The notes under the pieces are model-generated. The model did not search any database. It was not told the DNA's origin and saw only the letters and a list, made by a program, of their open reading frames with translations. DNA of 64,000 bases from an uncultured Chloroflexia bacterium (lineage in GTDB: Bacteria > Chloroflexota > Limnocylindria > Limnocylindrales > CSP1-4). Both the position numbers and the translations under genes were made by a program. Location: positions 389,015 through 453,014 of the forward strand of contig CAVSKY010000006.1 in assembly GCA_963728745.1 (NCBI GenBank). The letters are read 5' to 3'. Below, piece after piece: positions 10,931 through 34,012 of this stretch (the stretch's first letter is position 1; every line of letters begins with the position of its first letter).

Positions 10931-11120
10931 GCCGTCGCCTGGGGGCGACACGGATAAGCCGAGGCCGATGTCCAAGGCGCCTCGCCACGCTGGCGACGCC
11001 TGGGAAGCGACAAGGCGGGGTCGAGGCGGCAGTGGAAGGCACCTCGGCATCTGAGCGTCGCCTGGGAGGCGACAGAGGAGGTCGCCGCCGGCTCCAGGGC
11101 CTTCACCAGCAGGTGGCCGC
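10931..11120. repeat. Degenerate tandem repeat (about 63 bp x about 3) with GTCGCC-TGGGR-GGCGAC hairpins
   Basis: Units start at about 10931, 10994 and 11057. They share cgcctggg[ga][ga]gcgaca and gaggc.g..gt..aaggc.cctcg.ca.ctg. The region lies in a convergent intergenic space. Confidence 0.5.
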
Positions 11121-11828: not shown

Positions 11829-11860
11829 AGCGCCGAGAGTCTATCTGCGACACTGCCGCG

Positions 11861-14578: not shown

Positions 14579-14647
14579 GGATGAGACCTCCGCGATCCGA
14601 TCACGATCGATGGTGCGGTCTCGACGCGGTCGTATGCGAGCCGGTTC

Positions 14648-17290: not shown

Positions 17291-17926
17291 TCACCGCGAC
17301 GACCCCCGTCCCTCCGACGGGGGTCGTCGTGTTTTCTGCGTCGGGTCCGGCAGGTCTGCCGGCGTGTCGATGTCGGTGAGCGTGGCGCCGGCAAGGTCGT
17401 CACGGCGCCAGATCGAGGCAGAGATGACCTTGGCGTCAAGCTCGCCGATCAGCGCTCGCAGGCGTCGCTCGCCGCTCGCGATCAACCGCTCGACCGCGGG
17501 TCGCGCCACGGACGGACGGATCGCCATCGGAAGCGGGCGAGGCCTCGTCTCGTCCGCCAGGACAGCCGCGTCGTGGTCGTCGAGCGCGACGATCAGCCGT
17601 TCGAGGACGGCCGGAACGAGGCCAGGCATATCGGCACCGACGACCACGACCCGATCGACCGTTGGATCCAGGGCCTCCAAACCGGAGGCCAAGCCGGACA
17701 AGGGCCCCTCGAACGGGAGCGCGTCGTGGACGATGGTGACGCCGTCACGGGCGCCTGCGGTAGCCCTCGGTGAGGTCACGACCAGGATGTTGCTCGTCAC
17801 CAACCGCACGGCGTCGATCGCGTGGTCGAGCATCGGCCGGCCGTCGATCGGCTCGACCAGCTTGTCGCGGCCGAACCGAGACGAGCGGCCGCCGGCCAGG
17901 ACGATCGCCGCCGTACGCTCGGTCAT
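17291..17926 (-). CDS. mobA: Molybdenum cofactor guanylyltransferase
   Basis: AAIVLAGGRSSRFGRDKL ... VVVGADMP are the MobA nucleotide-binding signatures. There is a 4-nt overlap with selB. Confidence 0.75.
   Translation of the reverse strand: MTERTAAIVLAGGRSSRFGRDKLVEPIDGRPMLDHAIDAVRLVTSNILVVTSPRATAGARDGVTIVHDALPFEGPLSGLASGLEALDPTVDRVVVVGADMPGLVPAVLERLIVALDDHDAAVLADETRPRPLPMAIRPSVARPAVERLIASGERRLRALIGELDAKVISASIWRRDDLAGATLTDIDTPADLPDPTQKTRRPPSEGRGSSR
17297..17340 (+). terminator. Rho-independent terminator-like hairpin, embedded in the 3' coding end of mobA on the opposite strand
   Basis: CGACGACCCCCGTC-CCTCC-GACGGGGGTCGTCG gives a 14-bp perfect stem. It is followed by TGTTTTCTG. Confidence 0.5.
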
Positions 17927-19686
17927 CGACCGGCGGCGGTGGGCGCCTTCGCTCCCGGGACGTGCCCGGCCGGCGTGCGGCGCAGGATCGCCCGCCGGTC
18001 GAGATCCTCGAGGATGGCCATCACGTACTTGCGGCTGGTCCCGGTGGCGTCGCGCAAGGCGGCAGGCGTCAGCGGCCCCCGCGTGGCCATCGTCAGGGCC
18101 CGTTCGGTCAGGGTCCGGTAGGTGGTGGCTGCGTAGGCCAGGTCCGCCTCGACGACGATGATCCGGCCGCTGCGCTCAAGATCGCGGATGCCTGCGGGCG
18201 AGCACCCAGCGACCCGTGCGGCCTCTGCCAGCGATGGCGGGGCGAGGACGTCGAGCATGGATTCAAGGCGGTCCATGGCGGCGACCATGGCCTGATCGGG
18301 GCCAGCCGGCGCCCGGCCGGCACGCCGTACGACGTCCCCGTCGCGTGCGAGGCGACCGTCGGCGACCAGCCGATCGATGACAGCGTTCGCAGCGGCTGAA
18401 GCGTCGTCGCGGCGGGTGGTCACGGCACGGCGCAGGGCTCGTGCCGCCGCGCTCCGCGCAGTCGATAGCGATGCCTCGCCGGGCACCGCGGCAAGGACCG
18501 CGTCGGCGGCGGCCGCTGTGACGTCCGGTGCCAGCTCTCCGTCCAGCATCCCGTGGAGGTCCAACCGCGCCGCCCGGTCGCCCGCGGCCAGGGCGGCGAC
18601 GCGCTCGGGCGTCTGCCGGCGGCGCGAGACCCCGCGCGCCGGGGTGCTATCGAGCACGACGCCGCCGACCGGCGCCCCCTGCGCTCCGCGGCGCACCACG
18701 AAGCGATCGCCCTGGCGGAGGGCGATCGGCTGACTGAGCCGGAGGATCCCAGCCGGTCGCCCGTCCGGCAGCGCGAGGGCATCGCGGCCGCTGCGGCCGA
18801 TCGTGCCGTCCACCGCTGCGGTCCCTGCGTGCACCCGCCCGCTGGCCCGGTCCCCGACGGGATCGCGGAACGCGACCAGGGCACGCTCCGCCGCGACGAC
18901 CGCCGGATCGGCGGTGAGCACCATCCCGCGATGCAGCTCCCGGGCGTCGATCCCGGCGACGTTCAGGGCGGTCCGACCACCCGTCTCGACGGCGTCGACC
19001 GGCGTCCCGTGGACCTGGATCTCGCGGATCCGTGCCGTCCGATCGCCCGGGACCAGCCTGAGCGTCTCCCCTCGTCTGAGCGGTCCGCCCCGCAAGGTGC
19101 CGGTAACCACCACGCCGCGACCCTTCACGGAGAAGACGCGATCGATCGCAAGGGTCGGTGGTCGAAGGGAAAGGCGGACGCGGTCTCGGAGGTCGATGAG
19201 CGCCTCGCGCAGGGCGTCCACGCCCGCCCCGGTCAACCCTGACGCGGCGACAACCGGCGCGCCGGCCATCGATGTCGCGGCCAGCAACGCGGCAACGTCC
19301 GCCCGAACGGCCTCGACCCGCTCGCGCGGGACCGCGTCGATCTTGTTCACGACCGCGATCGCGCGGCCGATCCCGAGCGCATCGAGCAGCGCGACGTGCT
19401 CGTGCGTTTGCGCGCGGAGTCCATCGTCCGCAGCCACGACGAGCAATGCAGCATCGATCTCGCCGGCACCGACGAGCATGTTGCCGACCAGCTTGTCGTG
19501 CCCCGGCACGTCGACGAAGTCGATCGTCGTGCCGTCGTCGAGATCGAGATGGGCATACCCGACATCGATCGTCATGCCGCGCCGACGCTCCTCGGGGAGG
19601 CGGTCCGCATCGATCCCGGTGAGCGCGCGGAGCAACGTCGTCTTGCCGTGATCGATGTGGCCGGCCGTGCCCACGACGATGGTCAT
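17923..19686 (-). CDS. selB: Selenocysteine-specific translation elongation factor
   Basis: G-domain motifs [17 protein letters not shown] and NKID. It is 587 aa with a long C-terminal winged-helix region. It lies immediately downstream of selA. Confidence 0.85.
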
Positions 19687-21050
19687 CGCCCGGCGAGCGC
19701 GATCCTGACCGTGGCGGCCAACCGCCGATCCTGATCAGGATGGACGGTTCGAAGGTCGAGCAGCACGCGATCGTCCTCGATCCGGCCGATCACCGCCTGG
19801 CGACCGCATCGTCGGATCCGAGCCAGCAGACCGTCGGCGGACGAGCTCGCGACCGCAACGCCGACCGACGGGATCGTCTCGCCAGGAAGGCTGCCGCCGC
19901 CGATGGTGGATGCCATCTCGGCGACTGACGCTGCAGACCCGATCCTGGCTGCAACCCGCTCAGCGCGGGCTCGCAGGGCATCGACCGGCGTCGCGATCAT
20001 GACCCACACAGGGATCTGCGACATGGCCAGGCCAGCCCGGTACAACCCCAACGTCGCCGCCACGCCCAGCAGCGTCGCCTTGTCAGGGCGCATGGCCCGC
20101 GCCAGCGGATCGCGCCGCATCCGGGCAATGAGGTCCCCTCGACCGACGACCAGACCGGCCTGCGGTCCACCGACGAGCTTGTCGCCACTGAACGTGACGA
20201 TGTCGGACCCTATCGCCAGGCGCTCGGCCGGGGTCGGTTCGTGGGCAAGCCCGAACTGCTCGGTCGGGAGCAGTGCCCCTGATCCGAGATCGTCGATGAC
20301 GAACGCGCCGTGTCGATGCGCGAGCTCCGCCACACGGCTGGGATCGGGGGACTCGGTGAAACCGGCCATCGAGAAATTCGACGGGTGCACCCGAAGCACG
20401 GCACGAGCCTTGCCTTCAGCCAGCGGGGCCTCGAAGTCCTCGGCGCGTGTCCGGTTGGTCGTCCCTACCTCGATGAGCTTCGCGCCGACACGCCGGATGA
20501 TGTCCGGGATGCGCACGCCGCCGCCGATCTCGACGAGCTCGCCGCGCGACACGACGACGCCGCCGCGGCCCGCCAGGCCGACGGCCAGCACGAGAGCGGC
20601 CGCGTTGTTGTTCGTGACCAAGGCATCGTCGGCGCCGGTCAGCGCGATGAGGAGCTCCTCGGCGCGTCGATAGCGGTGCCCTCGACGACCGGTCTCCCGA
20701 TCGATCTCCAGCAGCAGGTAGTCGGTCGCACCTGCGGCGTGGATCGAAGCGATCCTGGGCCACGGCGCGCGACCGAGATTGGTATGGACGATCACCCCGG
20801 TCGCATTGATGACGTAGTCATCCTCGAACGGGACCTGTGCGTCCAGCCTTTTGAGGACGTCATCGATGAGATCGCGGACGAGCCGCGGATCGTTCCCCGC
20901 GGCGATCCGCACCCGTTCCTCCTCGATCACCGCACGGGCCGCGTCGACGACAACATCGTGCTGGCGCTCGAAGCCTTCGCGCAGTCGCACCGACGTCAAC
21001 AGGCCGTCGACGCTGGGTGGACGCGGATGCACGACCGGCTTCGACGTCAT
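19683..21050 (-). CDS. selA: L-seryl-tRNA(Sec) selenium transferase
   Basis: Signature FSGDKLVGGPQAGLVVGR with the PLP lysine context. The start is taken as ATG at 21050 behind GGAGGA. This removes the overlap with tRNA-Sec that the track's 21092 start would create. Confidence 0.85.
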   Translation of the reverse strand: MTSKPVVHPRPPSVDGLLTSVRLREGFERQHDVVVDAARAVIEEERVRIAAGNDPRLVRDLIDDVLKRLDAQVPFEDDYVINATGVIVHTNLGRAPWPRIASIHAAGATDYLLLEIDRETGRRGHRYRRAEELLIALTGADDALVTNNNAAALVLAVGLAGRGGVVVSRGELVEIGGGVRIPDIIRRVGAKLIEVGTTNRTRAEDFEAPLAEGKARAVLRVHPSNFSMAGFTESPDPSRVAELAHRHGAFVIDDLGSGALLPTEQFGLAHEPTPAERLAIGSDIVTFSGDKLVGGPQAGLVVGRGDLIARMRRDPLARAMRPDKATLLGVAATLGLYRAGLAMSQIPVWVMIATPVDALRARAERVAARIGSAASVAEMASTIGGGSLPGETIPSVGVAVASSSADGLLARIRRCGRQAVIGRIEDDRVLLDLRTVHPDQDRRLAATVRIALAGR

Positions 21051-21060
21051 CAGTCCTCCG

Positions 21061-21157
21061 TGGCGGGAACGCGTGGGAGTCGAACCCACCACGCCACGCC
21101 GAGCGCGGCGTCACCGGTTTTGAAGACCGGGGAACCCACCGGGGCCCAACCGCTCCC
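21061..21157 (-). tRNA. selC: tRNA-Sec (anticodon TCA)
   Basis: The reverse complement folds with an 8-nt acceptor (7 pairs), a 6-bp D-stem with 4-nt loop, and an anticodon stem-loop CCGGT-CTTCAAA-ACCGG. It also has a long variable arm, T-arm GTGGG-TTCGACT-CCCAC, and genomic CCA. It lies directly upstream of selA. Confidence 0.75.
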
Positions 21158-21213
21158 GCACGGATGGTAATGCGGGGGTCGTGGAATGGCCCGGGCGCAC
21201 CAACCCAGCAAAG

Positions 21214-21283
21214 CCTTCGAAATCGAAGGATCGCGTTCGGCGATGGGTGATCGCCGTGAGAGAAAACCTTCGAAATCGAAGGA
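21214..21283 (+). promoter_or_regulatory. Twin 16-bp perfect palindromes CCTTCGAAATCGAAGG (at 21214-21229 and 21267-21282), 53 bp apart, in the selC/selD divergent region
   Basis: A 17-bp exact direct repeat, CCTTCGAAATCGAAGGA. Each copy is a 7-2-7 inverted repeat. The second copy overlaps the selD ribosome-binding site and start. Confidence 0.4.
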
Positions 21284-21284
21284 G

Positions 21285-22391
21285 ATGCTGGCGGCAATGC
21301 CGCCGGCGGAGCCGGAACGCGGGCCCGCCTATCATCGTCTCGTGGCGACCCTGTCCGACGTCCCGAGCCTGCGGCTCACAAGCCTCACCGATTGCGGCGG
21401 CTGCGCGGCGAAGCTTGGTGCCGACCTGCTCTCCGAGGCGCTCGCAGGACTCGGCGCCGAGGCGGCACCCGACGAGCTCATCGCCGGGCTCCAGCCACCG
21501 GACGACGCCGCGGCCTATCGCGTCAGCGATGACCTCGCGATCATCGGCACGGTCGACTTCTTCCCGCCGCTGGTCGATGACGCGCGGACGTTCGGCGAGA
21601 TCGCGGCCGCGAACGCGATGAGCGACGTCTTCGCGATGGGCGGCCGCGTCCTCTTCGCCCTGTCGATCGCGGCGTTCCCCGAAGAGCTGCCGCGGAACGT
21701 GCTGGCGGAGGTGTTCGGTGGGGCGTCGGACAAGGTCCGCGAAGCCGGCGGGACCCTGGCGGGCGGCCATACGATCCGCGACCCGGAGCCCAAGTACGGG
21801 CTGGCGGTCATCGGCGCCGCGCACCCGAATCGACTCCTGCGCAAGGGTGCGGCCAGACCCGGCGACCAGCTCCTGCTCACCAAGCCGCTCGGCACCGGCC
21901 TGCTGGTGAGCGGCGCGCGAGCGGGCCGGACCGAACCTGCGGACCTCGCCGCGGCCATCGAGGGGATGCGGACCCTCAACCGCGCGGCGGCCGACGTCCT
22001 GGTCGGCCATGGGGTGACGGCTGCGACGGATATCACCGGCTTCGGCCTGCTCGGCCACGGCCTCGAGATGGCGCGCGCATCGGGCGCGCGGCTCATCTTC
22101 GACGCGCGGAGCATCCCGCCGCTGGACGGAGCGCTCGACCTCGCGCGCGCAGGCGTCGAGACCGGCGGTGCCGCGCACAATCGACGATTCGTCGCCGACG
22201 AGCTGGCTGTCGCGGCGGGCGTGCCGGCGGAGCTCGTGACACTCGCCTTCGACCCGCAGACGAGTGGCGGCCTGCTCGCAGCGATCGATCCGGATCGGGT
22301 GGAGGGGGTCGTCGCCGGCCTGCAGGGCGCAGGCGTCGACGTCTGGCGGATCGGCCGCGTGGAGGCGGGCTCGGGCGTCGCGCTGGCCTAG
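21285..22391 (+). CDS. selD: Selenide, water dikinase (selenophosphate synthetase), Cys-type
   Basis: RLTSLTDCGGCAAKLG is the SelD active-site loop with Cys, not Sec. AIR-synthase-related fold motifs are present. The start could be 21285 or 21297. Confidence 0.85.
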   Translation: MLAAMPPAEPERGPAYHRLVATLSDVPSLRLTSLTDCGGCAAKLGADLLSEALAGLGAEAAPDELIAGLQPPDDAAAYRVSDDLAIIGTVDFFPPLVDDARTFGEIAAANAMSDVFAMGGRVLFALSIAAFPEELPRNVLAEVFGGASDKVREAGGTLAGGHTIRDPEPKYGLAVIGAAHPNRLLRKGAARPGDQLLLTKPLGTGLLVSGARAGRTEPADLAAAIEGMRTLNRAAADVLVGHGVTAATDITGFGLLGHGLEMARASGARLIFDARSIPPLDGALDLARAGVETGGAAHNRRFVADELAVAAGVPAELVTLAFDPQTSGGLLAAIDPDRVEGVVAGLQGAGVDVWRIGRVEAGSGVALA

Positions 22392-22978
22392 CGGAGTCGG
22401 ACGTACGCGCCGACGATGGTGGCGCCGATGCTGATCAGCACGGATGGCACGTACTGGAGCAGGAAGGCGTCAAGCGCGAGGGCTGGATAGCCGGTCTCTC
22501 CAGCGGCCTCGGCCATCGCCGCATACCCCAGCAGCTCCCGCCACAGCCCGACCAGCGACAGTGACGCGCCCAGCAGCCCGCCGATCGCGATCCCGGCGAT
22601 CGCGAGCGCGAGGATCCGTGGGCCGCGCTTGATGCCGATCGTCCGGTCGAGCGCCTCGGCGATGATCGTGCCGGCGAAGAAGCCGAGGACGAGCATGAAG
22701 AACCCGAACTGCGCCCCGAAATAGCCCACCACAGCCCCGAGACCCGTGGCGACGGCCAGCCCGATCGCGAGCTGCCTCGTGCTCAGCGACGCAAGGGCAT
22801 CGCGCGACGGCTTGCCGCACGTCCTGCAACGCAGCCCGACCGGACCCTGCATGGAGCAGCGGGTGCAGATCGGTTGATCGCAGCGACCGCAGCGGACCCA
22901 CGTCTCACGGTCCGGATGGCGGTAGCAGTAGAGCGGCGGCGGCTCGCTGAGATCCGCAGTCGCGGCGTCGGTGGTCAT
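22388..22978 (-). CDS. Membrane protein with N-terminal zinc ribbon (CYRHPDRETWVRCGRCDQPICTRC) and glycine-rich TM helices
   Basis: Start is ATG at 22978 behind GAGGGGA. Four cysteines form a ribbon, followed by about 4 TM helices. It is a paralogue of the 30754-31455 gene. Confidence 0.5.
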   Translation of the reverse strand: MTTDAATADLSEPPPLYCYRHPDRETWVRCGRCDQPICTRCSMQGPVGLRCRTCGKPSRDALASLSTRQLAIGLAVATGLGAVVGYFGAQFGFFMLVLGFFAGTIIAEALDRTIGIKRGPRILALAIAGIAIGGLLGASLSLVGLWRELLGYAAMAEAAGETGYPALALDAFLLQYVPSVLISIGATIVGAYVRLR

Positions 22979-23073
22979 GTGTCCCCTCGCATGAACGATG
23001 CGGAGGTTGCCGTTCGAACGGCCCGTCGTCAAGCGGTACACTCGGGCGGTCGTCATCCGCAGGAGTCCACCGA

Positions 23074-24987
23074 GTGGCACGACCCTACGTACGACTGACC
23101 CAGCCCCTCGTGCGCGACGAGAAGGGCGGCGAGCTTCGACCAGCGACCTGGGATGAAGCGCTGGACCGCGTGGTCGCCGGGTTCCAGGCCGCGAGGGCGG
23201 CCCACGGCCCGACGACATTCGGCACCTTCAGCTGTAGCAAGGCGACCAACGAGGTCAACTTCGCGGCACAGAAGTTCAGCCGGGTGGTCCTGGGCAGCAA
23301 CAACATCGACAGCTGCAACCGCACCTGACACGCCCCGAGCGTCGCCGGTCTGGCGACCGTGTTCGGTGCCGGTGGGGGGACCAGCTCATATCGTGAGGTC
23401 GAGGACACCGATCTGATCGTCCTCTGGGGCAGCAATGCCCGCGAGACGCATCCGATCTTCTTCCACCACGTCCTCAAAGCCGTGCACAAGGGAGCGCGGC
23501 TGTATGCGGTCGACCCGCGCCGGACGTCCAGCGCGGAATGGGCCGACACGTGGCTTGGCCTCGACGTGGGCAGCGACATCGCGCTGGCCAATGCCATCGC
23601 CCGCGAGATCATCGCGTCGGGCCTGGAGCATCGCGAGTTCATCGAGCGGGCGACCGCCGACTTCGACGCCTACAAGGCCAAGGTCGAGTCGTACACGCTC
23701 GACTATGCCGAGCGCGAGACGGGCGTCCCGGCCGACGTCATCAAGGAGCTGGCGCACGCGCTGGCGACCGCGCCGCGGGCGATGATCTGCTGGACGTTGG
23801 GGATCACCGAGCACCACAACGCGGTCGACAACGTCCTGTCCCTGATCGACCTCGTCCTGCTCACCGGACACGTCGGTCGCTACGGGAGCGGCGTCAACCC
23901 GCTCCGTGGCCAGAACAACGTCCAGGGCGGCGGCGATATGGGCGCCCTGCCCGATCGTTTGCCTGGCTTCCAGCATGTCGAGAACGACACGCTCCGAGCG
24001 AAGTTCGACGCCGCCTGGGGCGTCACCGTCCCGCCGCAGCGTGGCTGGCACCTGTCGGGCATGTTCGACGCCATGGAACGGGGTGACCTGACCGCCGTGT
24101 ACTGCATCGGCGAGAACCCCGTCCAGTCGGAGGCCGACCAGCACCGCGCCATCCGGCTCCTCGAGGGCCTCGACATGCTCGTCGTCCAGGACCTGTTCCT
24201 GACGAAGACCGCCGAACTGGCGGACGTCGTCCTGCCGGCGAGCGCCGCATGGGCCGAGGGCGAGGGGACGGTCACCAACTCGGAGCGACGCGTCCAACGC
24301 GTCCGCAAAGCGGTCGAGCCGCCTGCGGGTGCCCGGGACGACCTGGCGATCATCTTCGACCTCGCGCGGCGGATGGGCGCCGACTGGGGCGACGCTGGCG
24401 CCGAACGCGTGTGGGACGAGGTCCGCGCGCTGTCGCCCGTCCATGCCGGGATGAGCTACCAGCGCCTCGAGGAGCTCGGCGGCATCCAGTGGCCGTGCTA
24501 CGACGAGGACCATCCCGGCGAGCTATTCCTCCACAGCCGGCTCTGGGAGGATCCGGTCCCGGGCAACCGCGTCCCGTTCGTTCCCGTCGACCACGACCCG
24601 CCGGTCGACAAGCTCACCGACGAGTACCCCATCCGGCTGACGACGGGCCGCCGGCTCGATTCCTACAACACCGGGGTCCAGACGGCCGGGTACACCTCGC
24701 CGCTGCGGCGTGGCGAGTCACTCGACATCTCGCCCGAGGACGCCGAGGCATACGGTCTGGCGGATGGCGAGGTCGTGTGCGCGATCTCGCGGCGCGGGCG
24801 GGTCGAGGTACCGGTCAGGATCGATCCGTCGCTGCGCCCGGGTCTCACGTTCATGACGCTCCATTTCCAGGACGACGTCGCCACGAACCTGCTGACGATC
24901 GACGCCACGGACCCGAAATCCGGCACCGCCGAGTTCAAGGCGACCGCGATCCGGATCGAGAAGCTCGCACAGCCCGTCTCGGCCTGA
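23074..24987 (+). CDS. fdhF: Formate dehydrogenase catalytic subunit (FdhF-like bis-MGD molybdo/tungstoenzyme), selenocysteine-containing, lacking the N-terminal Fe-S domain
   Basis: GTG at 23074 behind AGGAG. The in-frame TGA at 23326-23328 sits inside the conserved FDH active-site block NNIDSCNRT-U-HAPSVAGL. The same reading frame continues through 24987 and is strongly FdhF-like. Confidence 0.85.
23338..23360 (+). promoter_or_regulatory. SECIS-like mRNA hairpin GUCGCC-GGUCU-GGCGAC, 12 nt downstream of the UGA
   Basis: It mirrors the E. coli fdhF SECIS apical stem-loop (GGUCUG loop, encoding VAGL). Confidence 0.6.
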
Positions 24988-24992
24988 CCAAG

Positions 24993-25370
24993 GTGGCCGC
25001 CTCATCCGGGATCACCATCGTTGCCGCAGGCGACCTCGTCGATAACGTTCCGACACTTGGCATGCAGCGCCGCGAGGCAGCGGCTGGTGGGGCACGTATC
25101 ATCGCCGTGCGGACGCGACCGGGACTCGTATCGGGCTGGCACCATCATGCTGGATACGCGACCTACGGCTATGTCATCGCCGGACACCTCCGACTCGAGA
25201 GCGGGTCGCACGGCGCAACGGTGGTCGAGGCTGGGCCAGGCGACTTTTTCATCGTCCCGCCGGAAACGGTCCATCGAGAGAGCAACCCGTCTGACGAGGA
25301 GCAGGTGATCGTCGGGTTTCGGATCGGCGAGGGCGAAACGGTCGTGAACGTGGAAGGTCCCGATGGCTGA
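24993..25370 (+). CDS. Cupin-domain protein
   Basis: SGWHHHAGYATYGYVIAGHLRLE and GDFFIVPPETVHRESN are cupin motifs 1 and 2. The start could be GTG at 24993 or ATG at 25062. An 8-nt overlap joins it to the next gene. Confidence 0.6.
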   Translation: MAASSGITIVAAGDLVDNVPTLGMQRREAAAGGARIIAVRTRPGLVSGWHHHAGYATYGYVIAGHLRLESGSHGATVVEAGPGDFFIVPPETVHRESNPSDEEQVIVGFRIGEGETVVNVEGPDG

Positions 25371-26184
25371 GATCCCGGCGCAGCAGCAAGCTGACGATCA
25401 AGAGGACGGCGGGACGGAATTCGTCTCCGACCCCATGTGGGAGCGGCTGCTGAACGACCCCAATTCGGGGTTCGCCGCGGGCCGTGGGTTCCTCCGCATG
25501 CTCCCGAGTGATCCCCGCTGCAAGATGTGCGCCGCTCCGTTCGCAGGGCCCAGCGCGCCATTCATGCGGATGATCGACCGTGGTCGGTGGGACAAGAATC
25601 CCTCGATCTGCGGCCTGTGCTTCAAGCAGCTCGAGAAGGCTCGGGGCGGCGCCGAGATCGAGCTGAGCATGCTCTTTGCCGACGTGCGCGGATCGACCGG
25701 CCTTGCGGAGCGGATGGGCCCGGGCGCCTTCCAGAACCTCCTGGCCCGGTTCTACAAGGCAGCCACGAATGCCCTCGTGGCACGCGACGGCATCATCGAC
25801 AAGTTCGTCGGCGACGAGGTCGTCGCGCTCTTCCTGCCCGTCCTGGCGGGTCACGACCACGCGGCACACGCGATCGACGCAGCTCAGGAGTTGCTGCGCG
25901 CGACCGGGCATGCGACCGAGGGTGGACCGTGGATCCCCGTCGGCGCCGGTGTCCACACCGGGGTCGCGTACGTCGGGGCCATCGGCGACACCGTGACCGA
26001 CTTCACCGCGCTCGGCGACAGCGTCAACGTCACGGCGCGGCTCGCCTCGGCGGCGGGACCCGGGGAGATCCTCGTCAGCGCCGCCTCGGCGACCGCCGCC
26101 GGGCTCGACCAAAGCCTCGAGCTGCGCACGCTCACGCTGCGCGGTCGCGCGGAGCCCCTAGACGTCCGCGTCCTACGGGTCTGA
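25363..26184 (+). CDS. Class III adenylate/guanylate cyclase with N-terminal zinc ribbon
   Basis: Zinc ribbon CKMC...(16)...CGLC. Cyclase-homology-domain blocks MLFADVRGST, FVGDEVVALF, HTGVAYVGAIG and LGDSVNVTARL. Confidence 0.8.
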   Translation: MAEIPAQQQADDQEDGGTEFVSDPMWERLLNDPNSGFAAGRGFLRMLPSDPRCKMCAAPFAGPSAPFMRMIDRGRWDKNPSICGLCFKQLEKARGGAEIELSMLFADVRGSTGLAERMGPGAFQNLLARFYKAATNALVARDGIIDKFVGDEVVALFLPVLAGHDHAAHAIDAAQELLRATGHATEGGPWIPVGAGVHTGVAYVGAIGDTVTDFTALGDSVNVTARLASAAGPGEILVSAASATAAGLDQSLELRTLTLRGRAEPLDVRVLRV

Positions 26185-26232
26185 CCCGCCGGGGGCCGGT
26201 TCGACGCCCGAGCGGCGCTACACTCGAACGCG

Positions 26233-28080
26233 ATGGACCTGCACGTCATCGGGCCCCTCGCCTCCCCGGCCGAACGCGCCGCGGTCGACAGCGTCCTTGG
26301 CCCGCCCGAGTCCGGCTGGGTCGGCGGACCGCGCCGAGCCGGCGTGGAGGGACACGCCGCCCGCGGCGGTCACGCGATCCGCGCGAAACGGTCGCAGCTG
26401 CTGCCCGCCCTCCATGCCGTCCAGGACCGCATCGGTTGGATCAGCCAGCCAGCGCTGAACTACATCTCGCGCCGGTTGGCAGTCCCGCCGGCCGAGGCGT
26501 ACGGCGTGGCGACGTTCTACGCCCTGTATGCCACCGATCCGCGACCGCCGGTCATGGCGCACGTCTGCGACGACATCGCGTGCCGACTGGCCGGGGCGGA
26601 GCGGATCTGCGAGGACCTGGCGCGGTCGGTCGGGCCTGAAGGAGCAGCGACGGGCGACGGGCGACGGGGCTGGCTACGCTCCCCGTGTCTCGGGCTGTGC
26701 GAGCTGGCCCCGGCCGCGCTGATCACCAGCGCGGGCGAGTCGGGCTCGGTCATGAGCGCGGCCCCGGTCGATGCCGCCGGGATCGTCGCGCGGCTCGATG
26801 CCGGCGCGACCGTACGCGCGCCGCGCCCGGTGCCGCAGGCCGGTGACGGATCAGTCCGGCTCCTGCGCCGCATCGGCCTGGTCGATCCGACGTCGCTCGA
26901 CGACTATCGCGCGCACGGCGGGTACAGCGCGCTCCCAACGGCGCTCGAGATGGGCGCCGAGGCGGTGATCGGCGAGGTCACGGCCTCGAAGCTGATGGGC
27001 CGCGGTGGCGCGGCATTCCCGACTGGTCGTAAGTGGGCCGCCGTCGCCACCCAGCCCGCCCAGCCGCACTACATCGTGTGCAACGCGGACGAGTCGGAGC
27101 CGGGCACCTTCAAGGACCGCGTGATCCTCGAGGGCGATCCGTTCGCGGTCGTCGAGGCGATGACGATCGCCGCATTCGCGACGGGCGCCAGCCAGGGCTA
27201 CATCTACATCCGGGGCGAGTATCCCGAGGCGGAGTCGGCAGTCCGTAACGCGCTCGCCGCCGCGCGCACGGCCGGCCTGCTTGGCGGGGACATCCTCGCG
27301 TCGGGTTTCGCGTTCGACATCGAGGTCCGCCGAGGCGCGGGCGCGTACATCTGCGGCGAGGAGACGGCGCTCTTCGAGTCGATCGAGGGCAAGCGCGGCG
27401 AGCCGCGCAACAAGCCGCCGTTCCCGGTCGAGGTCGGGCTGTTCGGGAAGCCGACCGTCGTCAACAACGTCGAGACGCTGATCAACGTGCCGCTCGTGCT
27501 GGAGATGGGCGGCGAGGCGTACGCCCGTATCGGGACGGAGGGCTCGACCGGGCCGCGGCTGTTCTGCCTGTCGGGCAACGTCGCACGGCCGGGCGTGTAT
27601 GAGGTCGAATTCGGCGCGACCCTCGCCGAGCTGATCGAGCGCGCCGGCGGCGTTCCGGGTGGGCGAGCGATCCGCGCGATCCTGCTCGGCGGCGCGGCGG
27701 GCGTGTTCGTGGGTCCCGATTCGTTGGACATGCCGCTCACGTTCGAGGCGACCAGGGCGGCCGGGGCGACGCTCGGATCAGGCGTGATCATGGTCTTCGA
27801 CGAGACCGTCGACCTCGTCGACACGCTTCGCCGGATCGCACAGTTCTTCCGGGATGAGTCGTGCGGTCAGTGTGTCCCCTGCCGCGTCGGGAGCGTCCGC
27901 CAGGAGGAGCTGCTGGCTCGGCTCGCGGCGGGATCGCCGGTCCGGTCGCGGGACGATGAGCTGGTACTCCTGCGCGAGGTCGGCCAGGCGATGCGCGATG
28001 CGTCGATCTGCGGGCTCGGTCAGACCGCCTCGTCCGCCATCGAATCGGCCCTCCGGCGACCGGGACTGGTGGCGCTATGA
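26233..28080 (+). CDS. NuoE-NuoF fusion (NAD(P)H-binding flavoprotein, FdsG+FdsB / HylC+HylB-like)
   Basis: The N-terminus is a thioredoxin-like 2Fe-2S domain (HVCDDIAC...SPCLGLCE). After that come GRGGAAFPTGRKW (FMN site) and GAGAYICGEETAL (NADH site). The C-terminus has ESCGQCVPCR...ICGLGQ (4Fe-4S). Confidence 0.85.
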   Translation: MDLHVIGPLASPAERAAVDSVLGPPESGWVGGPRRAGVEGHAARGGHAIRAKRSQLLPALHAVQDRIGWISQPALNYISRRLAVPPAEAYGVATFYALYATDPRPPVMAHVCDDIACRLAGAERICEDLARSVGPEGAATGDGRRGWLRSPCLGLCELAPAALITSAGESGSVMSAAPVDAAGIVARLDAGATVRAPRPVPQAGDGSVRLLRRIGLVDPTSLDDYRAHGGYSALPTALEMGAEAVIGEVTASKLMGRGGAAFPTGRKWAAVATQPAQPHYIVCNADESEPGTFKDRVILEGDPFAVVEAMTIAAFATGASQGYIYIRGEYPEAESAVRNALAAARTAGLLGGDILASGFAFDIEVRRGAGAYICGEETALFESIEGKRGEPRNKPPFPVEVGLFGKPTVVNNVETLINVPLVLEMGGEAYARIGTEGSTGPRLFCLSGNVARPGVYEVEFGATLAELIERAGGVPGGRAIRAILLGGAAGVFVGPDSLDMPLTFEATRAAGATLGSGVIMVFDETVDLVDTLRRIAQFFRDESCGQCVPCRVGSVRQEELLARLAAGSPVRSRDDELVLLREVGQAMRDASICGLGQTASSAIESALRRPGLVAL

Positions 28081-29183
28081 CCGAGGACACGACCGGCCTG
28101 TCGATGACGCGCGACCCCGCGCCCGACCCGCAGTCGCCGCACGCGGGCCAGCCGCCGGCCGCGCAGCCACTGACCGAGATCGTCCTGTCGCCGCCGGCGC
28201 GCCCGTCGAAGCCGCCGGTGCCGCCGCCGGTCGACGCGCCGCCGCAGGTCGAGCTGACCATCGACGGGCGACCGGTGTCGGTGCCCGCCGGGACCACCAT
28301 CCTCGATGCCTGCCGCGAGCTCGGCATCGACACGCCGACGCTCTGCTACGCGGAGAACCTGACCCCCGTGAACGTCTGCCGCGTGTGCGTGGTCGAGGTC
28401 ACCGGCGCACGAGTGCTCGCACCGGCCTGCTCGCGCGCGGTCGAGCCGGGCATGGACGTCCAGACCGACACCGAGCGTGTCCGCACATCGCGCAAGGTGG
28501 TGCTCGAGTTCCTCGGCTCGTCGGTCGACGTGTCGCTGACGGGCCCCGCCGTACCCGACGGCACGATCCACGCATACATGGAGCGGTACGGCGCGGATCC
28601 ATCGCGGTTCGGCCCGCCGGCCGAACCCGCGGCCGCGGGGGAGCGCGACGCACACCAGCCCGGCCACCATCACGCGCCGAGTGCGGGGGAGGCGGCGTTC
28701 GCGGCGACGGTCGCCCAGCCGACCAAGGTCGACAACGACCTCTATGTCCGCGACTACTCGAAATGCATCCTCTGCTACAAGTGCGTCGAGGCGTGTGGGG
28801 AGGACGCACAGAACACGTTCGCCATCGCCGTCGCCGGGCGCGGCTTCGATGCGCGGATCTCGACCGAGCAGGCCGTCCCGCTGCCGGAGTCGGCGTGTGT
28901 GTACTGCGGCAACTGCATCGGCGTTTGTCCGACCGGCGCACTGATGGCCAAGCCCGAATACGACATGCGCGCGGCCGGCACGTGGGACGAGTCCGCCCAG
29001 ACCGTGACCTCGACGATCTGCCCGTACTGCGGCGTCGGTTGTGTGGTCGACCTGCACGTCCAGGACGACCGCATCCTCAAGGTGACGTCGCCGCTCAATT
29101 CGTCCGTGACGGACGGCCATCTGTGCATCAAGGGCAGGTTCGGCTTCGAATTCGTGAACGAGCGACCGAAGCCCCCGGCGTGA
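28077..29183 (+). CDS. NuoG-like Fe-S subunit: 2Fe-2S ferredoxin + 4Fe-4S clusters + Mo-bisMGD-type Fe4S4 domain (N-terminal module of FdhA, HylA-like)
   Basis: ATGA overlap with the previous gene. There is a Pro-rich N-terminal linker. Cysteine motifs are CRVCVVE, CILCYKCVEACGE, CVYCGNCIGVCPTG, ICPYCGVGCVVD and GHLCIKGRFGFEF. Confidence 0.8.
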   Translation: MTEDTTGLSMTRDPAPDPQSPHAGQPPAAQPLTEIVLSPPARPSKPPVPPPVDAPPQVELTIDGRPVSVPAGTTILDACRELGIDTPTLCYAENLTPVNVCRVCVVEVTGARVLAPACSRAVEPGMDVQTDTERVRTSRKVVLEFLGSSVDVSLTGPAVPDGTIHAYMERYGADPSRFGPPAEPAAAGERDAHQPGHHHAPSAGEAAFAATVAQPTKVDNDLYVRDYSKCILCYKCVEACGEDAQNTFAIAVAGRGFDARISTEQAVPLPESACVYCGNCIGVCPTGALMAKPEYDMRAAGTWDESAQTVTSTICPYCGVGCVVDLHVQDDRILKVTSPLNSSVTDGHLCIKGRFGFEFVNERPKPPA

Positions 29184-29611
29184 ACCTCACGCCGGCCGAA
29201 GGCGACCTGCTGACCAAGGCGCGCCGCGCGACGCTTGCGACGATCGCCCCGACCGGCCGGGCACGTCTCGTGCCGATCTGCTTCATCACGATCGACGACG
29301 TCCTGTGGTCGCCCATCGACCAGAAACCCAAGGCGACCGGGGATCCCCACGGGCTCGCGCGGGTCCGCGACATCCAGGCTCGGCCTGAGGTGACGGTGCT
29401 GGTCGACCAGTGGTCCGAGGACTGGTCGGACCTGGCGTGGCTCCGGCTCCACGCTCGTGCCGTCCTGATCGAGCCCTCCGATGTCCCGACCGCCACCGTG
29501 GAGGCGCTGCGCCAGCGCTATCCGCAGTACCGGGAGCACGACCTCGAGCACCGACCCATGCTCAAGATCACGCTCGAACGCGCGACGAGCTGGTTCGCCG
29601 CAGATCGGTGA
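29180..29611 (+). CDS. Pyridoxamine 5'-phosphate oxidase family protein (PPOX-class, probable F420/FMN-dependent)
   Basis: GTGA overlap with the upstream gene. 143 aa, with the PNPOx-like split-barrel pattern (ATLATIAPTGRARLVPICF). Confidence 0.65.
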   Translation: MNLTPAEGDLLTKARRATLATIAPTGRARLVPICFITIDDVLWSPIDQKPKATGDPHGLARVRDIQARPEVTVLVDQWSEDWSDLAWLRLHARAVLIEPSDVPTATVEALRQRYPQYREHDLEHRPMLKITLERATSWFAADR

Positions 29612-29777
29612 CCTGACAGGTCAAACCGACGTGTCAGGACATAAGGCGGTATGAACAAGCGTGGGCCGGCTTGACTTCGTGCCCATCGATGCGGGATCCG
29701 ACGGTCGAGCGTGCATGTTCATCCGAATCCGTGACCCTACGGGTCGATTTGACCCACCAGGTCACTTCGCGGAAAGA

Positions 29778-30650
29778 TCAGCCCCAGCCGGTCAGGTCGC
29801 GCAGGTCGATCCGGCGGTCGTGGCTGTACACATTGAAGCCGTCGCCACGCAGGAAACCGACCAGCGTCACCCCCAGGCGCTCCGCGGTCTCGACGGCCAG
29901 GTCCGAGGGCGCCGACACCGCCGCCACGATCGGCGCACCGGCGACGGCGGCCTTCTGGATGATCTCGAAGCTGACGCGGCCCGACACCATCACGATCCGG
30001 TCGTGCAGTGGCAACGACTTCGCCAGCAGCTGCGATCCGACCAGCTTGTCGAGCGCGTTGTGGCGGCCGACGTCCTCGCGCAGCGCCAGCAACTCGCCCG
30101 CCGGGGTGAACAGCGCGGCCGCGTGGAGTCCGCCGGTCTCATCGAACGCCTTCTGGGCCGCACGCAGCAGGTCGGGCAGGGCGACGATCACCGCGCGCGG
30201 CACGACCGGCCCGTCGGGGAGCGGATCGCAGCGCATCACCACCTCGTCGATCGACGCCTTGCCGCAGATCCCACAGGAAGCCGTCGCCACGAAGTGGCGC
30301 TCGGCGATGGCCGATGCGTCGAACGAGGTCGAGAGGCGAACGACGATGGTGTCGTCCGGCTGGTTGAGCGTGACCGGGTCGCCGGTCTCGGTCCCGACGA
30401 CCTCGGGACCCGTGATCAGACCCTCGGTATGCAGGAAACCGACCGCCAGTTCAGCCTCATGGCCGGGGGTCCGCATCGTGACCGCGACGGCCACGGGATC
30501 CTGATCGGGACCCGCGGCACGGATCTCGAGCGGCGCTTCCCCGACGACACGGTCGGAGCGGACCTCGAGCGAGCCGCCGCGCACCGCCACGATCGAGCGC
30601 GTCGTGATGTGCCGAGTGGGCGGAGCCGTCCCTTGCGCGTGCTGGGCCAT
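29778..30650 (-). CDS. fdhD: Formate dehydrogenase accessory sulfurtransferase
   Basis: CGICGKASID (active-site Cys loop) and GRHNALDKL. The start is probably ATG at 30650; the track's first ATG is 30716. Confidence 0.85.
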   Translation of the reverse strand: MAQHAQGTAPPTRHITTRSIVAVRGGSLEVRSDRVVGEAPLEIRAAGPDQDPVAVAVTMRTPGHEAELAVGFLHTEGLITGPEVVGTETGDPVTLNQPDDTIVVRLSTSFDASAIAERHFVATASCGICGKASIDEVVMRCDPLPDGPVVPRAVIVALPDLLRAAQKAFDETGGLHAAALFTPAGELLALREDVGRHNALDKLVGSQLLAKSLPLHDRIVMVSGRVSFEIIQKAAVAGAPIVAAVSAPSDLAVETAERLGVTLVGFLRGDGFNVYSHDRRIDLRDLTGWG

Positions 30651-30753
30651 GTCCGGCGAGTGTACTGGTGTACCCCGGACCGTCGGCGGGTCGTCCGCGG
30701 AGCCGACCATCGCCATACTCGCGCCGCCGGTCGACCGCCTGTCGACGGCTGGT

Positions 30754-31455
30754 ATGAAGGGGTCCTACTCCGTGAACGATTGGGTCTGCGGCAACTGCAA
30801 GTCGATCAACCGCGGCGCGGCGAACGCGTGTTACAGCTGTGGTGGCGCCCGGGAGATCGTGGCTGCCTCAGCACCGATCATCCCGATGACCGGGCAGTCG
30901 ACCGTTTCGAGCGGGGATGGTGGCGTCGGCGTCGCCGCCCTCGCATCACCGTTCGATCCGGCGATGGTTGCTGGTGGCGCCGCCGTGGCTCCTGCTGCGG
31001 CGACAGCTCCGGGGCAGCCGGCCGGCGCGAGCAACATCCTCGGCGGGTTCGTGGGTGGCCTTGTCGCAGCGGCCCTGGCGACCGCCGTGTGGTACGGCGT
31101 CGTGGCCGTCACCCAGTATCAGATCGGCCTGGTCGCCATCGCGGTCGGCTTCATCGTCGGCTACGGCGTCGTCCTGGGCGCGAACCGGCGTGGGTCCGTG
31201 CTGCTCGTGCCGATCTCGGTCATCTTCACGCTGCTGGCGCTCGTCATCAGCGAATACCTCATCGTCGCCCACTTCGTGAGCCAGGAGTTCGCGGCCGAGG
31301 GCCTGACGATCGACCTGGTCCAGCCACCCGACTTCGTCATCAGTGTGGTGATGGACTCGCTCCAGGCGGACCCGCTGACGCTAGTCTTCTGGGCGATCGC
31401 CCTGTTCCAGGCATTCGTGATCCCCTCGCGGACGATCGGCCGCAGCAACAGCTAG
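30754..31455 (+). CDS. Membrane protein with N-terminal RanBP2-like zinc ribbon (WVCGNCKSINRGAANACYSCGG) and glycine-rich TM helices
   Basis: A four-Cys ribbon is followed by an Ala/Gly-rich linker and about 4 TM helices. It is a paralogue of the 22388-22978 gene. Confidence 0.5.
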   Translation: MKGSYSVNDWVCGNCKSINRGAANACYSCGGAREIVAASAPIIPMTGQSTVSSGDGGVGVAALASPFDPAMVAGGAAVAPAAATAPGQPAGASNILGGFVGGLVAAALATAVWYGVVAVTQYQIGLVAIAVGFIVGYGVVLGANRRGSVLLVPISVIFTLLALVISEYLIVAHFVSQEFAAEGLTIDLVQPPDFVISVVMDSLQADPLTLVFWAIALFQAFVIPSRTIGRSNS

Positions 31456-32699
31456 CGACCCGCCTCCTCGCGGTCCAGGAACAGCGCGGTCCCGGTGGGC
31501 CGCAGGCAGTGGGTCGAGCTCATCGCTTGGTGGTAACCACCGGCGTTGAGCAGGGCGACGATATCGCCTTCGGCTACCTCGGCCATCGCGTAGTCCTCCG
31601 CGAAGACGTCGCTCGCTTCGTTGATGTGGCCGGCCACCGTCACCCGCTGCGTGCGCGCGGCGGCAGGGTCGCGGCACGGGACGATCTCCTGCGCGAAGCC
31701 GTAGATGAAGTACGCGCAGTTCACATTCCAGCCGATGTCGAGGCCGACGAACGTCACGCCTCGGCGCGTTTCGACGGTGACCACCTCGGCGAGCAGGATC
31801 GCGGCGTCCTTCGTGAGCGCGTCGCCGGGCTCCGCCGTGACGGTGACGCCGAGCGGGTCGAGGTGACGCGCCACGGCCGCGGCATAGGCGGCGAGATCCA
31901 CGCCTGACTCGTCCGCGCGTGCCGGCACGCCGAGCCCGCCGCCCACGTTGACCTCGATGATGCGGTGGCCAGCGGCGTGGGCCCGCGCGACGGCTTCGAC
32001 CGCCACCGGCAGTGCGCGCTCAAACGCCGGCAGCCCGTCGGCCAGCCACCCCGAGCCGGCGTGGAAATGGATCGTGTCGATCGCAAGCCGATGCTGCGCT
32101 GCCACGGCGAGCGCCTCGTCGAATCGCTCGAGTCCGATCCCGAACTTCGTGGGGCGCGACCCGCTGTACTCGAGCTGCTCGTTGTAGCCGGCACCCGTCG
32201 CGGGGTCGATCCGGATCCCGATCGAGGACCCCCGGGCTCGCCGCCCATAGCGCGCGATCTGGCTGATCGCGTCGAGGTTGCAGTGGATGCCGTGCTCGAG
32301 GATGACGTCGAGGTCACGCTCCGAGACATTGGTGCCGGTGTAGCTGATCTCGTCCGATCGCCAGCCGCATTCCAGTGCCCGTAGCACCTCCCCGGGCGAG
32401 CAGGCATCGATGCCGACGCTGGCCGGCGTGCCGGGCGCACCGAGGGCACGGAACACGCTGAGGATCTCGGGAAACGGATCGGCCTTGAGCGCGAACCGGA
32501 GCCGGAATGGGATGCCGGTCGGGGCGAAGGCCGCCTGGATCGCGCGCGCGTTCTCGCCGAACCGCGCGAGGTCGTAGGCGAAGAGCGGTGTCCCGTGCTC
32601 CCGGGCGAGCGCCTCGGCGTCTCGCCCCGCGATCGTCAGCCGGCCGTCAACGACGTCGAGTCCGGGTCTGACCCACCACGGGGCGACGACCGTGGTCAC
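31452..32699 (-). CDS. PLP-dependent decarboxylase, fold III (diaminopimelate decarboxylase-like)
   Basis: 415 aa. FAYDLARFGENARAIQ...FALKA is the PLP-lysine region. EPGDAL and GGYHQAM motifs are present. Confidence 0.75.
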   Translation of the reverse strand: MTTVVAPWWVRPGLDVVDGRLTIAGRDAEALAREHGTPLFAYDLARFGENARAIQAAFAPTGIPFRLRFALKADPFPEILSVFRALGAPGTPASVGIDACSPGEVLRALECGWRSDEISYTGTNVSERDLDVILEHGIHCNLDAISQIARYGRRARGSSIGIRIDPATGAGYNEQLEYSGSRPTKFGIGLERFDEALAVAAQHRLAIDTIHFHAGSGWLADGLPAFERALPVAVEAVARAHAAGHRIIEVNVGGGLGVPARADESGVDLAAYAAAVARHLDPLGVTVTAEPGDALTKDAAILLAEVVTVETRRGVTFVGLDIGWNVNCAYFIYGFAQEIVPCRDPAAARTQRVTVAGHINEASDVFAEDYAMAEVAEGDIVALLNAGGYHQAMSSTHCLRPTGTALFLDREEAGR

Positions 32700-33928: not shown

Positions 33929-34012
33929 CCCAGCCGTCCTAGTCCCGACGGTGACCAAGGTCCTGCGCAAGGACCTGGGACGCATGCCAAACCTGTGGGG
34001 GTTCCTCGATCC

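Follow-up and report, generated by a model that had tools for sequence, protein, structure and literature searches.

A predicted NAD+-linked, selenocysteine-containing formate dehydrogenase with an α-subunit encoded in two pieces in uncultured bacteria of several phyla

The subject of this study is a locus within a 64,000-nt stretch of DNA (the window) from the 1.28-Mb metagenome contig CAVSKY010000006.1 of an uncultured Chloroflexota bacterium, with a local G+C content of ~70%. As far as its sequence allows us to judge, the locus very likely codes for a formate dehydrogenase (FDH) of the FdsABG/Fdh1AB kind, a cytoplasmic enzyme linked to NAD+ that would consist of three polypeptides and carry selenocysteine (Sec) at its active site, and whose α-subunit is split between the domain of the proximal iron–sulfur (Fe–S) cluster, FS0, and the molybdopterin domains. 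The chemistry of such an enzyme is ordinary; its subunit organization is unusual, conserved, and widespread.

Results

An α-subunit divided at a domain boundary

The features of the window that make up the predicted enzyme, all on the forward strand, are as follows (Mo/W-bisPGD, molybdenum- or tungsten-bis-pyranopterin guanine dinucleotide; SECIS, selenocysteine insertion sequence).

23061–23065 (+): Shine–Dalgarno-like AGGAG, located 8 nt ahead of the catalytic gene's GTG start
23074–24987 (+): FDH catalytic gene (α-C; Mo/W-bisPGD core without FS0); Pfam Molybdopterin and Molydop_binding, TIGR01591
23326–23328 (+): in-frame UGA read as selenocysteine, in CNRT-U-HAPS
23341–23357 (+): SECIS apical hairpin GUCGCC-GGUCU-GGCGAC, from its fold and covariation
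26233–28080 (+): NuoE–NuoF fusion (β/γ diaphorase); Pfam, NCBIfam nuoE/nuoF
28077–29183 (+): NuoG/HoxU-like Fe–S subunit (α-N); Pfam, TIGR01591 positions 1–52

The catalytic gene is one frame, interrupted by a single internal TGA in the motif SCNRT-U-HAPSVAGL. It has a GTG start and an AGGAG of its own, and the gene upstream is transcribed divergently, so that no upstream coding sequence is able to supply the missing N-terminal domain. Pfam identified the Molybdopterin and Molydop_binding domains in the catalytic protein, but found no Molybdop_Fe4S4 domain. That domain lies at residues 309–361 of the product of the Fe–S gene, behind Fer2_4 and two ferredoxin-type 4Fe-4S motifs. It makes up the last 55 residues of the protein, which ends with GHLCIKGRFGFEFVNERPKPPA and the stop codon, and its motif is the sole one of its kind in the six frames of the window. 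The start of the Fe–S gene is joined to the stop of the nuoEF gene by an ATGA overlap at 28077–80.

Alignments place the cut precisely. Of the 672 positions of TIGR01591, 1–52 are found in the Fe–S protein (51.6 bits) and 53–672 in the catalytic protein (653.4 bits); the simple sum of the two scores is 705 and the equivalog cut-off is 666.25, whilst neither half by itself reached the cut-off of any NCBIfam equivalog. When compared with the fused FdsA of Aureimonas, residues 50–365 of the Fe–S protein align with 12–305, and residues 7–628 of the catalytic protein with 305–927, such that the junction falls at one residue. E. coli FdhF is matched by the two pieces over residues 6–54 and 61–689, respectively. 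By these alignments, the α-subunit is cut exactly at the boundary between the FS0 and molybdopterin domains, with nothing missing and nothing duplicated.

Much of this arrangement had been proposed in the original prediction for this stretch, which was made from the sequence without database searches. It stated that a Sec-containing catalytic subunit starts at the point where FdhF follows its N-terminal Fe4S4 domain, that a separate NuoG-like subunit ends with a Mo-bisMGD-type Fe4S4 domain (bisMGD, bis-molybdopterin guanine dinucleotide), and that a NuoE–NuoF fusion sits between the two halves. The domain matches given above bear out each of these points, as do the in-frame UGA and SECIS hairpin described below. 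The Fe–S module was also said to lie three genes downstream of the catalytic gene; it is indeed encoded by a separate downstream gene, but the count has to be corrected, given that a cupin and a cyclase gene also precede nuoEF.

The same split in related genomes

Relatives were collected by comparing the Fe–S protein with one genome per GTDB species, which yielded at least 553, and 80 loci (L001–L080) were examined. The Fe–S open reading frame (ORF) stops 3–30 residues after the motif KGRFG[FWY]xFV in 79 of these 80 loci, and the catalytic ORF begins 4–10 residues before RLTxPLVR wherever the gene is present. The catalytic gene was not found in the retrieved DNA of 17 loci, mostly short contigs; wherever both genes were detected (63 loci), it lies upstream of nuoEF and on the same strand. 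The Fe–S gene directly adjoins or overlaps nuoEF in 79/79 loci. The best 360 protein clusters obtained with seeds from Limnocylindria, Isosphaeraceae, and Actinomycetota are all 293–392 aa in length, and there was no named cultured organism among the homologue matches from these seeds. A search of a representative library with the Fe–S piece returned mostly fragments, and fused proteins start at ≤45% identity. The recurrence of the break point (79/80 loci) is far beyond chance, and together with the constant gene order it answers the question, raised with the original prediction, of whether homologous loci in related genomes are divided in the same way.

The single exceptional locus is L032, where the Fe–S ORF (10001–13444) runs on for ~800 Arg/Pro-rich residues. 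This is most likely a long-read frameshift, and not a fusion.

The catalytic subunit is encoded by a selenoprotein gene

The alignment of the catalytic protein with E. coli FdhH starts at FdhH residue 61 and matches U85, H86, and R278 with U140, H141, and R333 of FdhH. Its best scores were with the FdhF of hydrogen-dependent CO2 reductase (HDCR; 479 bits), FdhH (470), and FdsA (426). No twin-arginine signal was found in the protein, which implies that the enzyme is cytoplasmic.

All 61 catalytic genes of the clade have the motif CNRT-U-HAPS, with a TGA at the metal-ligand codon. The hairpin begins 15 nt downstream of the UGA and is 100% paired across 45 distinct sequences, with compensatory changes in two pairs (CG-to-GC and CG-to-UA). 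The observed covariation score was reached by none of 500 shuffles, the same bases being also under coding constraint. The Rfam SECIS_3 model gave only a weak match at this position (19.1 bits, below its threshold of 63). The genes for selenocysteine synthesis and insertion adjoin the FDH locus, with selA, selB, selD, and tRNA-Sec all above their respective thresholds:

17291–17926 (−): mobA, MobA-like guanylyltransferase of bis-MGD synthesis; Pfam NTP_transf_3, 123 bits
17923–19686 (−): selB, Sec-specific elongation factor; TIGR00475, 307 bits, above cut-off
19683–21092 (−): selA, selenocysteine synthase, longest ORF; Pfam SelA, 374 bits
21061–21157 (−): tRNA-Sec (selC), anticodon UCA; ARAGORN, and Rfam RF01852 at 72.4 bits (threshold 47)
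21186–22391 (+): selD, selenophosphate synthetase of the Cys type; TIGR00476, 344 bits, above cut-off

The catalytic gene has, in short, the features of a bacterial selenoprotein gene, with an in-frame UGA, a SECIS hairpin 3′ of it, and selA, selB, selC, and selD all present. The UGA would be decoded by the adjacent selABCD genes with the aid of the hairpin.

With regard to the selenium genes themselves, mobA-selB-selA-selC constitute one leftward cluster from which selD diverges, and they adjoin the catalytic gene, the sole selenoprotein gene observed in the window. As the longest selA ORF overlaps the tRNA-Sec gene by ~30 nt, the true start of selA is probably further inside.

Cluster ligands of the Fe–S subunit

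The Fe–S subunit has the ligands for one [2Fe–2S] cluster (C90, C101, C104, and C118), two [4Fe–4S] clusters (C230–C240 and C274–C284), and FS0 (C315, C318, C322, and C350), plus K352. C315/C318/C322/C350/K352 are spaced like C8/C11/C15/C42/K44 in FdhH, and these residues are invariant. All 16 Cys ligands, corresponding to clusters A1, A2, A3, and A5, are likewise invariant in 80/80 orthologues. The best match in the Protein Data Bank (PDB) was Rhodobacter capsulatus FdsA (RcFdsA), residues 18–305, at 159 bits, as opposed to ~110 bits at most for NuoG of complex I; hence, where the original prediction had allowed that the protein might group with bona fide NuoG, it is the FdsA N-terminus that prevails. 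We also considered that the locus might encode a NuoEFG module of complex I, and rejected this because no other nuo genes flank it, the Fe–S protein scores higher with FdsA than with NuoG, and the pterin partner has its Sec, His, and Arg intact. The Pro-rich N-terminus of the Fe–S subunit, which had been described as a linker, is present at residues 1–55, but it is a variable extension that is absent from most relatives and no linker.

One FdsA cluster has no counterpart. The motif H-x3-C-x2-C-x5-C, which provides the ligands of cluster A4 in FdsA, is replaced by SSVDVSLTGPAVPDG in the Fe–S protein of the window, which has no Cys or His in this region. Substitutions affect all four ligands, both here and in each of the 16 clade representatives that were inspected, whereas the nearest fused relatives retain the motif. 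Going by these substitutions, the off-pathway, His-ligated cluster A4 of FdsA is lost in the split enzyme.

A clade-wide motif, ERD...PGHHH (residues ~148–160 and 190–199), was observed in the linker that precedes the 2x[4Fe–4S] domain, with H198 present in 79/80 sequences. A role in metal binding or in docking is conceivable.

The NuoE–NuoF fusion

The diaphorase subunit has an N1a-like [2Fe–2S] site (C112, C117, C152, and C156), an N3-like [4Fe–4S] site (C544, C547, C550, and C593), and a site for flavin mononucleotide (FMN) and NAD. These eight ligand cysteines are invariant in 60/60 orthologues. The fusion aligns over its full length, residues 52–608, with residues 48–557 of the β-subunit of Methylobacterium extorquens FDH1 (MeFDH1; 7e5z_B). 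The protein of the window ends 7 residues past the NADH_4Fe-4S domain of Pfam; none of the 60 orthologues has a ferredoxin motif CxxCxxCxxxCP, and their tails past the last ligand are no longer than 62 residues. In RcFdsB, Glu258 and Glu259 enforce the use of NAD+ over NADP+ (PMC10671435); the CGEE motif that corresponds to them, by sequence offset and not by residue-level alignment, is kept in NuoEF.

Hosts, operon forms, and origin of the split

The nearest relatives of the locus are metagenome-assembled genomes (MAGs) of Candidatus Limnocylindria/Limnocylindrales, in which the Fe–S protein is 84–91% and the catalytic protein 88–89% identical, and which share mobA, selB, selA, and selD on one side and fdhD and a decarboxylase gene on the other. 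The actinobacterial background suggested in the original prediction is therefore wrong: the host belongs to the Limnocylindria (Chloroflexota), as do its closest syntenic relatives. Long contigs also carry the three-gene unit in Acidobacteriota (Terriglobia, Bryobacterales, and Thermoanaerobaculia), Planctomycetota (Isosphaeraceae and Gemmata), and uncultured Actinomycetota, including Trebonia. It is upon such long contigs that the phylum spread rests, as the MAG labels of short contigs may be mis-binned.

The form of the operon differs between phyla. It is compact in Actinomycetota, with the order fdhD-cat-nuoEF-FeS-mobA (cat and FeS being the catalytic and Fe–S genes), and contiguous as cat-nuoEF-FeS in Acidobacteriota and Planctomycetota. 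In Limnocylindria, 0.06–8 kb separate cat from nuoEF. The fdhD gene, directly upstream of the operon in Actinomycetota, adjoins it in Chloroflexota.

In a crude neighbor-joining tree of the catalytic domain with few outgroups, the split members form one monophyletic clade on a long stem, whose subclades largely follow phyla. Within this clade, catalytic domains are 61–90% identical to one another, and none exceeds 48% identity to a fused relative. Closest to the clade in the tree is a fused, FdsA-like paralogue that also contains Sec and is encoded in the Limnocylindrales genome that harbors the split operon L042, whilst a plasmid search produced only proteobacterial fused FdsA proteins (≤35% identity), which were used as outgroups. 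The tree and these identities tentatively point to a single, fairly old fission. As a speculation, the order cat-EF-FeS would be accounted for if the α–EF unit had been duplicated in tandem and the copies had then lost complementary parts.

In the fused paralogue of L042 (~9517–14600, − strand), an in-frame TGA occupies the corresponding active-site codon and an A4-like motif is present; separate nuoE and nuoF genes follow. With up to 48% identity to members of the split clade, it is the closest fused protein found.

Neighboring genes

The remaining genes around the enzyme are listed here.

22388–22979 (−): Zn-ribbon membrane protein gene, divergent from the catalytic gene
24993–25370 (+): cupin gene; Pfam
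25363–26184 (+): class III nucleotide (adenylate/guanylate) cyclase gene; Pfam
29180–29611 (+): PNPOx/PPOX-class protein gene; Pfam PNPOx_N
29778–30716 (−): fdhD, FdhD/FdsC-type sulfurtransferase of Mo/W cofactor maturation; Pfam FdhD-NarQ, 219 bits

The cupin and cyclase genes (24993–26184) are inserted passengers outside the conserved system. In the related loci, no homologue of either turned up between cat and nuoEF, where there is either no insert or one of 0.06–8 kb. The stop of the Fe–S gene is joined to the start of the PNPOx gene by the GTGA overlap (29180–83) from which translational coupling had been predicted.

Several further observations were made in the window. The cyclase carries a Cys-rich, Zn-ribbon-like N-terminal segment. 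The small membrane protein encoded at 22388–22979 (−) has a pair of B-box/Zn-ribbon-like CxxC motifs at its N-terminus and no family match. A 233-aa ORF at 30754–31455 (+), with an N-terminal motif resembling a RanBP-type zinc finger, adjoins fdhD in the closest relatives L001 and L005. An 805-aa ORF at 33995–36412 (+) has good coding statistics and no Pfam match. Lastly, a 748-aa ORF at 29661–31907 (+) was tried as a gene and rejected, as it has no family matches and the gene calls of the source contig reveal it to be a shadow of fdhD (−) and of the 3′ end of the decarboxylase gene. Its apparent co-occurrence across loci is really that of FdhD, and it illustrates that long ORFs are unreliable in DNA of 70% G+C.

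Discussion

Proposed enzyme and electron path

We infer by analogy with characterized enzymes that the three polypeptides form a complex, as well as the electron path, the specificity for NAD+, and the physiological direction. The product would be a soluble, three-subunit formate:NAD+ oxidoreductase that is probably reversible. Formate would be oxidized at the Mo/W-bisPGD center of the catalytic subunit (Sec85, His86, and Arg278), with electrons leaving via the pterin to FS0, which, along with the bridging K352, would be supplied by the separate, non-covalently docked Fe–S subunit. From there, they would pass through the two ferredoxin-type [4Fe–4S] clusters and the [2Fe–2S] cluster of the same subunit, and finally through the N3-like [4Fe–4S] cluster and FMN of the NuoE–NuoF fusion to NAD+. 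FdhD and MobA would mature the cofactor.

The main path in the R. capsulatus enzyme (RcFDH) is bisMGD-A1-A2-A3-A5-B6-FMN, in which the His-ligated A4, located at the dimer interface, does not take part (PMC7171172). The ligands of all of the on-path clusters are kept in the split enzyme. Lys44 of E. coli FDH-H, which bridges cluster and pterin, is essential (PMC12176258), and it follows that the equivalent lysine and the proximal cluster of the split enzyme would have to come from the Fe–S subunit in trans.

Some considerations weigh against or limit this proposal. The complex between the catalytic and Fe–S subunits is one predicted from co-occurrence and complementary domains. In Limnocylindria, the catalytic gene lies up to 8 kb from nuoEF and has its own promoter region, so the subunit may serve other partners. 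Descent of the catalytic piece from an FdsA-type fusion is not proven, as the FdhF and FdhH types score slightly higher. An AlphaFold2 model of the Fe–S subunit, built from a 35-sequence alignment, had a mean pLDDT of 54, with values below 30 in the cluster-binding regions, and was not used. Finally, the sequence is compatible with either Mo or W as the metal, and with either formate oxidation or CO2 reduction in vivo.

Other readings of the locus

With regard to direction, an enzyme of the same architecture might act physiologically as an NADH-dependent CO2 reductase that makes formate. Sec enzymes are often good CO2 reducers, which counts in favor of this idea, as does the reversibility of FdsABG-type enzymes (PMC7171172, PMC10671435). 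No Wood–Ljungdahl or formate–tetrahydrofolate ligase genes are among the annotated genes of the window, which is an absence of evidence only, and we regard a dedicated reductase as unlikely, albeit the least unlikely of the alternatives.

A slightly poorer prospect is that the two modules are independent, with NuoEF and the Fe–S subunit serving another partner, and the catalytic subunit another acceptor, such as the PPOX/F420-type protein. The 0.06–8 kb between the catalytic gene and nuoEF in Limnocylindria, and the promoter region of the former, are compatible with this idea, and so is the PPOX-like gene, whose start overlaps the Fe–S stop and whose product is close to an F420-dependent family. 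Nevertheless, the catalytic subunit has no FS0 of its own, and we know of no role for an FS0 domain other than next to a pterin. Moreover, the catalytic gene is upstream of nuoEF and on the same strand in 63/63 loci, and the genes are contiguous in Acidobacteriota, Planctomycetota, and Actinomycetota. As for the PPOX-like protein, it scored 109.5 bits with TIGR03668 (Rv0121-type F420-dependent PPOX), below the cut-off of 119.15, and its gene occurs near ~20 Chloroflexota loci in variable position, usually beyond fdhD, and never in other phyla. It is probably a lineage-specific neighbor and not a subunit of the enzyme, and the F420 or flavin link that the original prediction had seen in it falls away.

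That prediction had also assigned the locus to the electron-bifurcating FDHs of the FdhF2-HylABC/Bfu type, which couple formate oxidation to the reduction of both NAD+ and ferredoxin. The resemblance is real at the level of superficial architecture, in that neither a NuoG-like subunit nor the NuoE/NuoF modules share a polypeptide with the pterin subunit, and that much of the assignment stands. In addition, the top PDB match of the NuoF part was 9bov_B (401 bits), which we take to be NfnB of the Bfu family, marginally above FdsB (398 bits). Type 2 Bfu enzymes also have no cluster A3 in BfuA (PMC9304861), which may or may not be the His-ligated cluster lost here. However, bifurcating BfuB always carries clusters B2–B5, and deletion of B3/B4 abolishes bifurcation (PMC9304861, PMC11829005). 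The B2–B5 sites, including the C-terminal 2x[4Fe–4S] of B3/B4, are absent from 60/60 NuoEF orthologues, which have no ligand cysteines beyond the eight, and bifurcation is thereby largely refuted. Furthermore, FdhF2, the pterin subunit of the Hyl system, keeps its own FS0, whereas FS0 belongs to the NuoG-like protein in the enzyme described here. This enzyme also occurs in soil lineages that are presumably mostly aerobic, and not in fermentative Firmicutes. We therefore consider a bifurcating enzyme very improbable.

The last alternative, that the split is an artefact (a frameshift or misassembly) or a decaying pseudogene, could appeal to the metagenomic origin of the contig and to the apparent frameshift in the related long-read locus L032, yet we give it practically no credence, and the frameshift or assembly error that the original prediction had named as a possible cause is excluded. 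Loci of several phyla that were assembled independently break at the very same point in 79 of 80 cases, and as the halves lie on opposite sides of nuoEF in reversed order, it would take more than one indel to unite them. Moreover, the catalytic gene is equipped with a start and ribosome-binding site of its own, the cofactor ligands are invariant across sequences that are 61–90% identical, and the best 360 protein clusters are all 293–392 aa long.

Significance of a divided α-subunit

In the literature that we searched, coverage of which was incomplete such that an earlier description is possible, we found no published FDH or other Mo/W-bisPGD enzyme in which FS0 is carried by a different polypeptide. 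In PMC12176258, and in the NarG FS0 work that it cites, FS0 and Lys44 are viewed as integral to the catalytic subunit and its maturation. The three-polypeptide enzyme proposed here would be a natural experiment in molybdoenzyme assembly, with FS0 and the equivalent of Lys44 docked non-covalently.

We tentatively suggest, in the knowledge that the odds are rather against it, that this is the first recognized Mo/W-bisPGD enzyme with FS0 and its bridging lysine in trans; that the catalytic module is a separately translated and matured plug-in, which docks onto a pre-assembled NuoEF/Fe–S wire; and that the fission and the uniform use of Sec are possibly adaptive. Through fission, the UGA would come to lie at codon 85 of a message that is short and independent, and failed decoding would then release a harmless 84-residue peptide, as opposed to a truncated Fe–S protein of ~390 residues that poisons the diaphorase module. 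The strict association of fission with Sec (61/61) hints, speculatively, at such an advantage. A further effect of fission would be that the cofactor could be inserted independently of FS0 assembly. A modular catalytic unit of this sort may interest designers of CO2-reduction biocatalysts in which electron-input modules can be exchanged.

The genes for the enzyme are abundant in soil and groundwater metagenomes and occur in at least four phyla, but are poorly annotated. The Fe–S half is publicly labeled as “2Fe-2S cluster-binding protein”, “YjgC”, or “HndD”, and gene callers that stop at TGA are expected to truncate the catalytic half. Consequently, formate oxidation and selenium dependence may be missed or misassigned in Limnocylindria, Acidobacteriota, Planctomycetota, and uncultured Actinomycetota.

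Comparison with known systems

The closest known architecture is that of M. extorquens Fdh1AB (MeFDH1; PDB ID codes 7E5Z and 7VW6), a tungsten-containing, NAD+-dependent enzyme, followed by FdsABG. As in MeFDH1, the β-subunit is a NuoE–NuoF fusion, and both enzymes are cytoplasmic and have no bifurcation clusters. The α-subunit of MeFDH1 is one chain, in which a NuoG/HoxU-like Fe–S N-terminus is followed by an FdhF-like pterin domain. In contrast, α comprises two polypeptides here, cut after FS0, whose genes flank the β gene; Sec takes the place of Cys as metal ligand, the His-ligated cluster is lost, and identity is ~33–36%.

The FdsABG(D) enzymes of R. capsulatus and Cupriavidus necator (PDB ID codes 6TG9 and 6VW7) share clusters A1, A2, A3, A5, and B6, FMN, and an FdhD/FdsC gene with the split enzyme. 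There, however, FdsA is a single chain of 958 aa, with Cys386 at the metal and A4 kept at the dimer interface, FdsG and FdsB are separate, and the gene order is G-B-A in place of cat-nuoEF-FeS. FdsD was not seen among the annotated genes of the window and loci, in which no systematic search for it was made.

E. coli FdhH (FdhF) and the FdhF of HDCR (PDB ID codes 1AA6 and 7QV7) have the same Sec–His plus Arg site, with the SECIS directly 3′ of the UGA. They differ in having their own FS0 (residues 1–60) and no NuoEFG-like partners, whereas the equivalent of residues 1–60 is on another protein here. FdhF2-HylABC (Fdh-Bfu) of Gottschalkia (Clostridium) acidurici is similar in that its pterin polypeptide is separate from the NuoG-like BfuA/HylA and is accompanied by NuoE/NuoF-like modules; it is distinguished from the split enzyme by the absence of B2–B5, the fusion of NuoE with NuoF, and the presence of FS0 on the NuoG-like subunit in the latter, and by the phyla and lifestyle of the hosts. 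A precedent for a split is offered by FwdB/FwdD of formylmethanofuran dehydrogenase, but there the chain is broken towards the C-terminal end, between domains III and IV, and FS0 stays with the pterin domains.

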